Origin: Eledone cirrhosa
Lineage: Eukaryota
Length of the DNA stretch: 64,000 nt
Reading direction: 5' to 3'
Assembly: GCA_964016885.1 (NCBI GenBank)
Contig: OZ024741.1
Location: forward strand, 204,848,001 to 204,912,000
This document shows positions 26,963 to 54,791 of this stretch, in pieces. A program made the translations under genes and the position numbers. Under the pieces are notes generated by a model. It was not told the DNA's origin. It made no database searches and saw only the letters and a program-made list of their open reading frames with translations. Each line of letters begins with the position of its first letter. The stretch's first letter is position 1.

Positions 26963-27311
26963 TACGATATTAAGCAAATGGAAACTATATTTATAAAACC
27001 ATATTTATTTCATTATATATATTTCAGGGATATCATATTAAAAATATGGTATGCCCTCTTCAGACAAAATACAATATATAAACAGTTTTATAAATAAATT
27101 TGACATACCTTAAACTTTACAACTTCCATTTAAAACAACTTTTTAAATGGAAGTTGTAAAGTTTAAGGTATGTCAAATTTATTTATAAAACTGTTTATAT
27201 ATTGTATTTTGTCTGAAGAGGGCATACCATATTTTTAATATGATATACCTGAAATATATATAATGAAATAAATATGGTTTTATAAATATAGTTTCCATTT
27301 GCTTAATATCG

Positions 27312-27313
<2 letters not shown>
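26963..27313. repeat. Near-perfect palindrome (173-bp arms, 5-nt spacer) with a hammerhead motif in each arm
   Basis: One mismatch seen between arms. CTGAAGA at 27213, GAAA at 27251; motif at 27205-27270 (+) and its mirror at 27006-27071 (-). Confidence 0.85.
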
Positions 27314-51245: not shown

Positions 51246-51333
51246 CTGTAACAAAAATAGATAAAATGAGTAAATACATGTGTCTGTGTATGTGAGTGGC
51301 TGAATAATGTTGCATATGGGCTATATTGTATGA

Positions 51334-51664
51334 CTAGCTCGTTCCGTGTCATCAAAAAAATGAAGGCTAATTGTAATATGTATACATAATATAAAAAAAG
51401 AAATGTTTGTTTGTTGGTTGGTTGGTTCTTTCATGCTCACTCACACAAGTGATACAAACATACAAACCTTTCTCAGTCGACGTTATCACCCCTTCCTTTC
51501 TCAGTCGATATAATATCTCCTTCCTTTTTCAGTCAACGTTATCACCCCTTCCTTTGTCAGTCAATGTTATCACCCCTTCCTTTCTCAGTTGACGTAATCA
51601 CCTCTTCCTTTGTCAGTCATCTTTTGTGACGGACAAAAACACAAGGATATTATATATTAGTAGA
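51334..51664 (-). mobile_element. Non-autonomous Helitron-like element with 28-bp minisatellite
   Basis: Minus strand A|TCTAC...CTAG|T; about 5.5 units of CCTTTCTCAGTCGACGTTATCACCCCTT at 51467-51619. Confidence 0.6.
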
Positions 51665-52042
51665 TCTTGTCATAGAACAATTGTTTGTTTCACAATCATG
51701 AAGTCTCAAGTTTGATCCCACTGCATGGCATCTTGAGCAAGTTTTTTCTACCATAGCCTCAGTCTGACCTTACCTTTTGTAAGTAATATTTCAGCATGCA
51801 TTGGGAGCATTTTATCATGACTCCAGCCCTACCCCACTACAGGATGGACAGTGTTCTTTTTATCATGGCACCAGCACTACCATTTTACAGTGTGGTGGGT
51901 GTATCATCATGGTACCAGCACTGCCACTTTATTATGTGAGCTGGATGAATTTATTGTTGCACCACCACTGCCATTTTACAGAGTGGGTTGGGTATATTTT
52001 ATTGTGGCACCATCATCAGCATGGGTAGGACAATATATATAT

Positions 52043-52101
<59 letters not shown>

Positions 52102-52164
52102 CATTAAAATAACAACAGAAGGCCAGACTAGAAAATTTACTTTAGAATTACAATTCCGTGAAAG

Positions 52165-52234
52165 CACTATACATATTTCAATGGCCCAGCTCTATCATCT
52201 ATTATGATGCAAAACAAGGCGATTTCTTCAGGTG
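52165..52234 (-). ncRNA. Minimal hammerhead ribozyme motif
   Basis: CAC-CTGAAGA-[imperfect stem II]-GAAAT-ATGT-ATA-GTG on the minus strand. Confidence 0.6.
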
Positions 52235-52395
52235 TTATTTGCAGAATTATGTAACAGGATTACTTTGAACCCAAATATAGAATGGAAGATAGGAGATAGA
52301 GAAAAAAAATAGTAGATAGAAAACAGAAAATTCGATTTGGGGTAAAATGACAGGAGGCCATACTGGTGAAATTGCTTTAAGATTTATTTCAGCAA

Positions 52396-52453
52396 ACACT
52401 ATGTACGTTTCAGTGGCCATGTTACGTAAGATCCTGGTGACATCATCAGGTTC
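52396..52453 (-). ncRNA. Minimal hammerhead ribozyme motif
   Basis: AC-CTGATGA-[TGTCACCAGG..CATGGCCACT]-GAAAC-GTAC-ATA-GT; one stem III mismatch consistent with CpG decay. Confidence 0.6.
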
Positions 52454-52539
52454 ATATTGCATAACAGTTACATAACTTCTTATAGCCTCTTGGGCTGTCT
52501 TTATCATTATTTCTTTATTATATAACTATTGTGCAATAT

Positions 52540-52597
52540 GCACCTGATGATGTCACCAGGATCTTACAAAACCTGGCCAATGAAATGTACATAGTGT
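52540..52597 (+). ncRNA. Minimal hammerhead ribozyme motif (inverted arm)
   Basis: GCAC-CTGATGA-[CCAGG/CCTGG]-GAAAT-GTAC-ATA-GTGT; palindromic ATGTACAT. Confidence 0.68.
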
Positions 52598-53309
52598 TTG
52601 CTGAAATAAAAATTTGAAGGAATTTCACCAGTCCGGCCTCCTGTTATTTTATTCAAGAATAATTAACTCTGTTCTCACACCACCAACAAGATTCAACATC
52701 AAAGATGTTGCTGCATATGAGTTGCATAACGTTGAGTGCTTTTCCTAATATTACATCATGGTTGGCTATACAGAAAGACCAGTTCTATCCAGTGGTGAAC
52801 CACCAAACTTAAATGTGTATATATATATGCACATGGCTTAGTGGTTAGAGCATTGGCCTTGCAATCGAAAGGTTGTGAGTTCAATTCTCAGACCGGGTGA
52901 TGTGTTGTTTCCTTGAGCAAGACACTTTATTTCACATTGCTCCAGTTTACTCAGCTGTAGAAATGAGATGATAGGGACTGGGGTCCCTGTCATTCCACTG
53001 CAAAGTGGTCGTGGAGGTGCCACGGCAAAAAAGCACCCAGCACTCACTGTAAATGAGGTTGGTGTTAGGAAGGGCATCCAGCTGTAGAAATCAAGCCAGA
53101 ATCAGTTCCCGTCCCACCCTTGCAAGCAGGGAAAAAGTGGACGTTAAATGAAATGATGAATGATGATGATAAACACACATACACATGCATATATACAGAC
53201 AACAGGTTTCTCTACAGTTTCTATCAAATAAAACTTTAATAACAAGGCATTGGTATAATAAATAATCAAATATATATATGTAAAGAAACTTAAAAAATGA
53301 TCAGCTTAC

Positions 53310-53426: not shown

Positions 53427-53498
53427 CTTTGAAATAGAGTGAAAATACAGGCATGAATACAAGGAAGAGGAAAATAAAAATTAAGAGGGGTGTATGAA

Positions 53499-54791
53499 TG
53501 TTAAGACCGGATGCCCATGGGAACTCCTGTATGCTGATGACCTCACACTCATAGCTGGATCTATGGTAGAACTAGAGAAGAAATTCCAAACTTGGAAGCA
53601 GGGACTAGAAAGAAAGGGTCTCAAAGTCAACATGACAAAGACTAAGGTCCTTATAAGTAGACGAGAAAACAGAACCCAGATCCCCTCAGGGAAATGGCCT
53701 TGCTCAGTATGTAGGAAAGATGTAAGTAGGAACTCCATTCTCTGCCCCAAATGCAAACAATGGGTTCACAAGAGATGTAGTGGGATCTCAGGAAGCTTAA
53801 TTAAGAATGTAGGCTTCACATGTAGCAGCTGTGCTGGGACAGCAAGCAGCAAACAGCCACAGGAAACAAGTACCACCAATCTCTGGGAGGGTTCTGTAGA
53901 AACAGTAGACAGCTTCTGCTACCTAGGTGACCGAATTAGCAGCGGAGGTGGGTGTTCAGAAAGTACAATAACTAGGGTAAGAACGGGATGGAAGAAGTTC
54001 AGAGAACTACTGCCACTGCTAGCTGAAAAAGGCTTCTCCCTCAGAATGAAAGGCAGACTGTATGATGCGTGTATCCGAACAGCGATGTTGCATGGTAGTG
54101 AGACCTGGGCGCTGAAGGTGGAAGACTTACGTAGATTAGAAAGAAACGAAGCCTGCATGCTACGATGGATATGTAATAGTAATATACGCGAACGGCAAAG
54201 CATAAATGAATTGAGAGAGAGACTGAGCATAAGAGGAATCAAATGCTGTGTGCAGGAGAGGCGGTTGCGTTGGTATGGACATGTGATGCGTATGAAGGAT
54301 GACAGCTGCATAAAAATGTGCAGAGCACTAGAGGTCAATGGAAACCGCGGAGTGGGGAGACCCAAGAAGACCTGGGATGAGGTGATAAAAGCCGACCTTA
54401 CCCAATTGCACCTCTCAAAGGCGATGACACACGACCGTGACTTCTGGCGTCACGCAGTAATACAGAGTACCCGACCTCCCATGGGTACAAGCTGAAGCAT
54501 GTAGACAATATGCCCCCACCCCCTCCCACTGCAAAGTGGTCGTGGAGGTGCCACGGCAAAAAAGCACCCAGCCCACACTGTAAAGTGGACGTGTAGGGCC
54601 ACGGAAAAAAGCACCAGCACTCACTGTAAATAAGGTTGGTGTTAGGAAGGGCATCCAGCTGTAGAAATCAAGCCAAAATCAGTTCCTGTATGAGCAAGGC
54701 ATGGTCAGCCGACCAGACACTGCCCACAACAGGACAACCCGTCTAACCCATGCTAGCATGGAAGAACGGACGTAAAACGGTGATGATGATG
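53499..54791 (+). mobile_element. RTE family B-like LINE, 5'-truncated, antisense in an HBS1L intron
   Basis: ORF 53494..54495 (YADD, PHD-like finger, RWYGHVMRM) open to its stop; 3' UTR and (GAT)n tail. Confidence 0.95.

Follow-up and report, generated by a model that had tools for sequence, protein, structure and literature searches.

Three hammerhead ribozyme motifs that lie close together in an intron of HBS1L in Eledone cirrhosa very probably belong to two insertions, both old and truncated, of non-coding repeat families that differ from each other and are likely non-autonomous Penelope-like elements (PLEs); the motifs probably release no RNA today. The locus was studied in a window of 64,000 nucleotides (contig OZ024741.1, positions 204,848,001 to 204,912,000; coordinates below count from the first letter of the window), and a genome of 3.0 Gb was searched for related copies. 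In a preliminary description made from the sequence of the window, the motifs had been presented as one cassette, in which two tandem ribozymes on the sense strand of the host gene would release a 232-nt monomer that circularises in the manner of a retrozyme.

Hammerhead motifs and repeat copies in the HBS1L intron

All three motifs fall within one intron of HBS1L (Table 1). Two minus-strand exons match the EF-Tu GTPase domain, and the downstream exon finds its best match in HBS1L (E 2e-25, versus 1e-16 for eEF1A), which bears out the earlier placement of the motifs in an intron of this minus-strand gene, with copies A and B on its sense strand.

Table 1. Coordinates of the features at the locus, numbered from the first nucleotide of the window.
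Feature	Position	Strand	Description
Copy A	52104-52342	-	3' end of repeat family A, truncated on its 5' side; short-end form, with 64 nt after the cut site
Copy B	52343-52475	-	Family B arm, inverted and 5'-truncated, whose hammerhead is decayed
Copy C	52477-52815	+	Long-end form of the family B 3' end, extending ~220 nt beyond the cut site; antisense to HBS1L
Hammerhead motif A	52164-52235	-	Core 52231-52225, GAAA 52179-52176; palindromic stem III; predicted cut 52168/52167
Hammerhead motif B	core 52449-52443	-	Decayed; predicted cut 52400/52399
Hammerhead motif C	core 52544-52550	+	Predicted cut 52593/52594
Proposed 232-nt unit	52168-52399	-	Chimera in which 57 nt come from family B and 175 nt from family A; GC 33%
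A-B junction	52342-52343		One base fits both families
Host intron	51246-53309 (2064 nt)	-	GT..AG ends; between two GTPase-domain exons of HBS1L
(TA)n/(CA)n microsatellite	52032-52103		3' end of copy A; likely insertion target; the same tract type ends family copies
Short (TA)n tract	52816-52829		3' end of copy C; a tRNA-like repeat comes next

The motifs, each of the form CUGANGA, stem II, GAAA, hexamer and UA, begin at 52231 (-), 52449 (-) and 52544 (+); they are real, as first described, with 11/11 core positions intact in each, and the two predicted minus-strand cuts do lie 232 nt apart. From these features we read A, B and C as type I hammerheads with predicted cleavage and a palindromic stem III, the palindrome being broken in B. 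The elements of the type I core (CUGANGA, GAAA, UH and an open stem I) are present in all three and invariant in 12 aligned motifs. In motif A, stem I has three pairs and then a mismatch, stem II forms 8 of 10 pairs and stem III is a full palindrome; motif C has four pairs in stem I, 6/10 in stem II and likewise a full palindrome; motif B carries a G.A mismatch at the third pair of stem I, forms five of the ten pairs of stem II and has lost the stem III palindrome. The earlier statement that stem II still pairs in both tandem motifs thus holds for A and only partly for B. A canonical G10.1-C11.1 pair closing stem II is absent from all three (A-U in A, U.U in B and C), while U11.1 is present in 11 of the 12 aligned motifs and C at 10.4 in every one.

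A structural descriptor that demands three stems returned four matches in the window, namely A, C and both members of a pair near 27 kb, compared with none in each of 60 shuffles; copy B fails it because of the G.A mismatch in stem I and the broken palindrome of stem III. Rfam gave no hammerhead match, either across the whole window at the gathering score or within 52000-52900 at E values up to 10, and its best matches were microRNA hairpin models far below their cut-offs, which the B/C inverted repeat explains. Folded in isolation, the motifs did no better than shuffles (z of -1.4, -0.6 and 0.1). The pair near 27 kb belongs to another family and is a second fold-back of hammerheads, of much younger age (26963-27135 and 27141-27313); its arms are identical at 172 of 173 positions, the cores lie at 27063 (-) and 27213 (+), and TA tracts flank it on either side.

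Copies B and C form a fold-back pair of family B (52343-52815), an inverted repeat in which 117 of the 133 aligned bases are identical (88%). Copies A and B are ~72-74% alike in the ribozyme part only, and the 87 nt between them have no counterpart upstream of the family B ribozyme. Of the repeat layout given in the preliminary description, the inverted relation of B and C is retained, and the direct repeat of A and B turns out to be two different families; the extent of 52104-52651 is also too short, since copy C continues to 52815. Copy A is 93% identical to the family A majority sequence over the ribozyme region, and the window copies as a whole are 92-93% identical to their family majorities, having decayed by ~7-8%.

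Structural covariation, on which the preliminary description had made its reading depend, is present between families: 16 of the 19 stem pairs change on both sides and 89% of cells pair in the 12 aligned motifs, a count that leans towards structure, as nine outside rows of the alignment are hits of the pairing descriptor. Within families, a count of all substitutions shows the cores to be better conserved than the flanks (13 seen against 40.8 expected in A, 23 against 46.3 in B). This first test for selection on inserted copies looked positive and lost significance without shared and CpG changes; rare alleles in the core number 13 against 17.3 expected in A (p 0.18) and 13 against 19.7 in B (p 0.07, borderline). 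Among 11 copies per family found via the body of the element, the gap is gone, with six core changes against 7.1 expected in A and seven against 6.1 in B. The core is intact in 20 of 43 family A copies and 38 of 56 family B copies, compared with three of three in the window. Because the stems covary between families, the fold appears to have been selected in the master elements, and the data fit such selection followed by neutral decay after insertion.

Two repeat families and their candidate helpers

First-look searches gave about 3,700 candidates for family A (3,719; 40 scored) and about 4,200 for family B (4,227, queried with copy C and its tail; 40 scored), numbers that are not copy numbers. 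In both families the 5' ends are ragged and the 3' end is fixed at either of two places, ~65 or ~213 nt beyond the cut site, where a microsatellite follows. The distance from cut to microsatellite is bimodal in each, at 62-67 in 3/7 and 207-224 in 4/7 for family A, and at 64-74 in 8/26 and 192-225 in 15/26 for family B. Inverted partners accompany four of 29 family A loci and 13 of 29 family B loci, two of the 13 being one segmental duplication. Partial tandems (pseudo-LTRs) or inverted 5' copies were found at L104, L086, L091 and L095. The partial tandems, found by extending upstream, consist of tail, long AT-rich body, hammerhead and short end, with a period of ~1.9 kb in family A (L104, which also has an inverted 5' copy) and ~2.4 kb in family B (L095; 2.8 kb at L091, with an insertion). 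One same-strand pair 7.6 kb apart on C1 (L055/L059), considered as pseudo-LTRs, is actually a segmental duplication of 98-99.9% identity. A recent 7.6-kb tandem segmental duplication containing a family B fold-back was noted at L061 (G000:C1:261259500-261269400).

Families A and B therefore have the anatomy of non-autonomous PLEs, namely fixed 3' ends with an optional tail, variable 5' truncation, pseudo-LTR partial tandems, inverted 5' copies, a hammerhead in the end repeat and a (TA)n target. The RT and GIY-YIG frame of an autonomous PLE was not found in them: the family B majority sequence has no frame longer than 97 codons, and no such frame was seen upstream of family A in 25 loci, over which the A body is partly covered. 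The idea of a Penelope repeat with hammerheads in an intron, also raised in the preliminary description, is thus upheld as to the Penelope-type ends and fails as to a single multi-ribozyme element.

A query with a GIY-YIG fragment returned 42,615 candidates, of which 150 were scored. At L171, a natural frame of 650 residues contains an RT with YRDD, a CxCX5C linker, a C-terminal GIY-YIG-type motif, and CxxC and CxH motifs that sit around a conserved E and N; Pfam gave no match for this frame. By motif description, these RT and GIY-YIG elements fit the Hydra clade of PLEs, for which the same CxCX5C linker and CxxC/CxH motifs, (TA)n targets and hammerheads are described (PMC8557442). A hammerhead of the same type lies downstream of the RT+GIY-YIG frame at 11 of 20 loci, at 1.1-1.8 kb in eight of these, and is followed by a short or long end at a microsatellite. 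Shared anatomy, hammerhead type and end geometry suggest that these elements are likely the helpers of A and B. The partnership is argued from anatomy because DNA similarity does not link A and B to the ends of coding elements; a comparison with the 3' ends of 50 GIY-YIG loci (one coding clade) yielded only separate insertions, a fusion at L129 and an unrelated simple flank.

Several other apparent links were set aside. A tblastn match between the GIY-YIG frame and the family B majority is circular, since the frame runs into family B DNA at L085, and the hammerheads beside RT frames at L159, L169, L170 and L174 (upstream) are separate insertions bounded by microsatellites. At L085 (~2200-2900) and L129 (~1690), the GIY-YIG frame passes straight into the family B body with no microsatellite between, which may reflect either the nesting of one insertion in another or template switching between the RNAs of helper and parasite. 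The coding-element hammerheads at L160-L177 start with CC instead of CU in 9/11 copies, a possible U4C core variant.

Among 58 top loci, a scan found unlike hammerheads paired on the same strand within 1 kb at three, and a further pair, ~272 nt apart, was noted by eye at L018. As unlike pairs are nested at these other loci also, we take such close pairs to be a by-product of the shared insertion target. Further hammerhead families were seen at L006-L176, in ~770 kb of fetched DNA that is itself enriched for such sites; they have the hexamer palindrome, UA before the cut and mostly U at 11.1.

The A-B junction and competing readings of the locus

Judged by its matches in the genome, the 232-nt piece is a one-off fusion of a family B 3' end to a 5'-truncated family A copy and not a repeat unit. 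Window copy B falls 8-9 nt short of the usual short end, is missing the (TA)n tract that belongs there and joins the truncated start of A, while short-ended family B copies normally end a few bases farther and run into (TA)n. When the genome was searched with the whole region (3,719 candidates, 40 scored), matches covered 52100-52342 or began at 52343, and spanned both only at the locus itself; a search centred on the junction found it nowhere else among the 40 scored of 1,070 candidates, an apparent second junction at G000:C28:7833869 being spurious. The junction is bridged by DNA contigs from three runs of one sample, possibly the assembly's own; these contigs do not contain the 52168-52399 joint and, not being on record as RNA, are uninformative on circles. 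Same-family, same-strand short tandems were found at 0/58 loci, and with a junction unique among the scored candidates, the search for tandem arrays of the 232-nt unit that had been put forward turned up none.

Set against retrozymes, the piece is non-coding, the longest listed frame over the element being a 92-codon stop-to-stop frame, and its GC content is below 50%. It does not form head-to-tail tandems of one 150-450 nt unit, the periods being 1.9 and 2.4 kb, and it does not have a complete hammerhead at both ends, as B is mismatched in all three stems and predicted to be masked.

The masking follows from predicted folds of the HBS1L strand, on which antisense C is transcribed before B and B before A. 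When a 726-nt segment is folded, 50 of the 54 B ribozyme positions pair with the antisense C arm at a probability of at least 0.89, and stem I of A and stem I of B both have a probability of 0.0; in folds of truncated transcripts, B is already paired as it emerges. The model thus predicts that B is locked in a duplex with antisense C, which is made first. Motif A was described earlier as having no perfect antisense arm to mask it, and this agrees with the folds, in which it is predicted unpaired with that arm and has no good partner. The B/antisense-C duplex (52343-52651, minus strand; ~130 bp, 88% paired) would be a likely substrate for A-to-I editing in HBS1L pre-mRNA.

We propose that a PLE RT/GIY-YIG protein would first have reverse-transcribed the 3' end of a family B RNA into a (TA)n tract, leaving a fold-back whose two arms began at the short and the long site, respectively. 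A copy of family A would then have inserted in the new (TA)n at the short arm, its truncated 5' end replacing the last bases of B. This order is one that we infer; one event, with a template jump between the two RNAs of A and B, would give an identical junction. The hammerhead of the master elements likely had weak cutting activity on multi-unit transcripts, exerted as a dimer via the palindromic stem III or with protein help. In HBS1L pre-mRNA, antisense C would come first and pair along B, and with B so paired and A lacking a good partner, the intron would be spliced uncut; a small 232-nt circular RNA is probably not made.

A working retrozyme-like cassette, in which B and A both cut during HBS1L transcription and a host ligase circularises the piece between them, is very improbable. 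It has in its favour two intact same-strand cores 232 nt apart, a length within the size range given for animal retrozymes (PMC7229834), low GC content and host transcription that crosses B and A in the right sense. However, it has at its centre a piece that is not a repeat unit and a junction unique among the scored candidates, and one of its two ribozymes, B, has defects in all three stems and would be masked once made. A stem III dimer of A and B would contain two A.C mismatches in register, and the predicted 232-nt circle is no better folded than shuffles (-29.0 versus -29.7 +/- 3.8 kcal/mol, 100 shuffles), in contrast to the highly self-paired circles described for retrozymes (PMC7229834). 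The excised and circularised monomer of the preliminary description thus finds no support, with B decayed and predicted masked and the true periods at ~1.9 and ~2.4 kb. We give a similarly slim chance to a broader version, in which PLE ends nested in (TA)n tails repeatedly set unlike hammerheads 200-500 nt apart in introns, and the locus is a nascent retrozyme whose chimeric 232-nt circle, arising from HBS1L transcription, could be amplified by PLE enzymes. Were such a circle real, it would show that PLE fragments can give rise to retrozymes directly, a descent for which the arguments to date come from distribution and trees.

It is also very improbable that the insertions are debris in which motif A still cuts slowly and so trims or lowers HBS1L pre-mRNA or opens the excised intron. 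Although its core is kept, stem II forms 8/10 pairs, stem III is palindromic and the antisense arm leaves it unpaired, its stem I breaks off after three pairs with a predicted probability of 0.0 in context, and it differs from the family majority at ~7% of sites, like other copies; single PLE hammerheads are reported to lack cleavage in vitro (PMC4209133) or to need the PLE protein (PMC11167929). Lastly, the frequency of inverted pairs and the TA-rich tracts flanking the unit could recall a MITE-like DNA transposon with long terminal inverted repeats, with the hammerheads as passengers. This we consider extremely improbable, as the arms are unequal and vary in length by locus, most copies are single and 5'-truncated, and the long direct partial tandems are retrotransposon anatomy.

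Comparison with known elements

The locus is, in our assessment, ordinary debris of PLE ends, and families A and B are new, though of a kind already known. The hammerheads described from PLE pseudo-LTRs (Cervera and de la Pena 2014, PMC4209133) resemble those found here in being type I, with a short stem I, a long stem II and a small palindromic stem III suited to dimers, and in occurring mostly one at a time, at truncated copies; the same paper also describes motif pairs on opposite strands, 100-700 bp apart, and an absence of cleavage by single motifs. Unlike the elements of that account, the window copies have no G10.1-C11.1 pair, no RT frame was found in family B and the periods are 1.9-2.4 kb.

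Truncation, partial tandems, inverted copies and one-sided tails are described as PLE anatomy (Craig et al. 2021, PMC8557442), and the tail has been tied to two internal RT start sites in work where protein assisted the hammerhead and insertion in vitro did not require the ribozyme (Frangieh et al. 2024, PMC11167929). Families A and B agree with these accounts in their 5' truncation, partial tandems, inverted 5' copy, optional tail at one end and (TA)n targets, and differ in the length of the optional tail, ~150 nt compared with 30-40 nt. Animal non-LTR retrozymes are described as head-to-tail tandems of one short unit, each with a hammerhead, that are expressed as well-paired circles (Cervera and de la Pena 2020, PMC7229834; Li et al. 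2026, 10.64898/2026.07.22.740005). They share with the present families the non-coding nature, low GC content, type I hammerhead and proposed movement by PLEs, whereas the motifs here come from different families, the native units are of kilobase length and no short tandem was found.

A pair of autonomous and non-autonomous PLEs making short intronic insertions in microsatellites has been described (PMC9977147), and 235 Rfam hammerhead matches are reported from the giant squid genome (PMC6962438). A transposon protein resident in the genome studied here has named relatives in Argonauta alone. Families A and B were not found in the open-access literature on cephalopod hammerheads and Penelope elements; the supplements of PMC4209133 and PMC8557442 may list them. 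The genome holds many hammerhead-bearing families of PLE type, of which two are apparently non-coding, with kilobase units, a ~150-nt tail and a shared stem II variant. Their value is modest and for specialists: they could be used to ask if the stem II variant cleaves and if each of the two fixed ends marks an internal start site of reverse transcription.

Other repeats were noted around the locus. The head of a tRNA-like repeat (52834-52891, plus strand; Rfam tRNA, 28.1 bits, just under the cut-off) directly follows copy C, and the ends of families at L010 and L165 abut the same repeat. The HBS1L intron also contains minisatellites with 28-nt and 46-nt units, at 51439-51624 and 51811-51995. 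In the next intron, a 336-codon frame (53485-54495, plus strand) belongs to the 3' fragment of a LINE, with the end of the RT and a PHD-like zinc finger, and similar fragments recur in many of the fetched loci.
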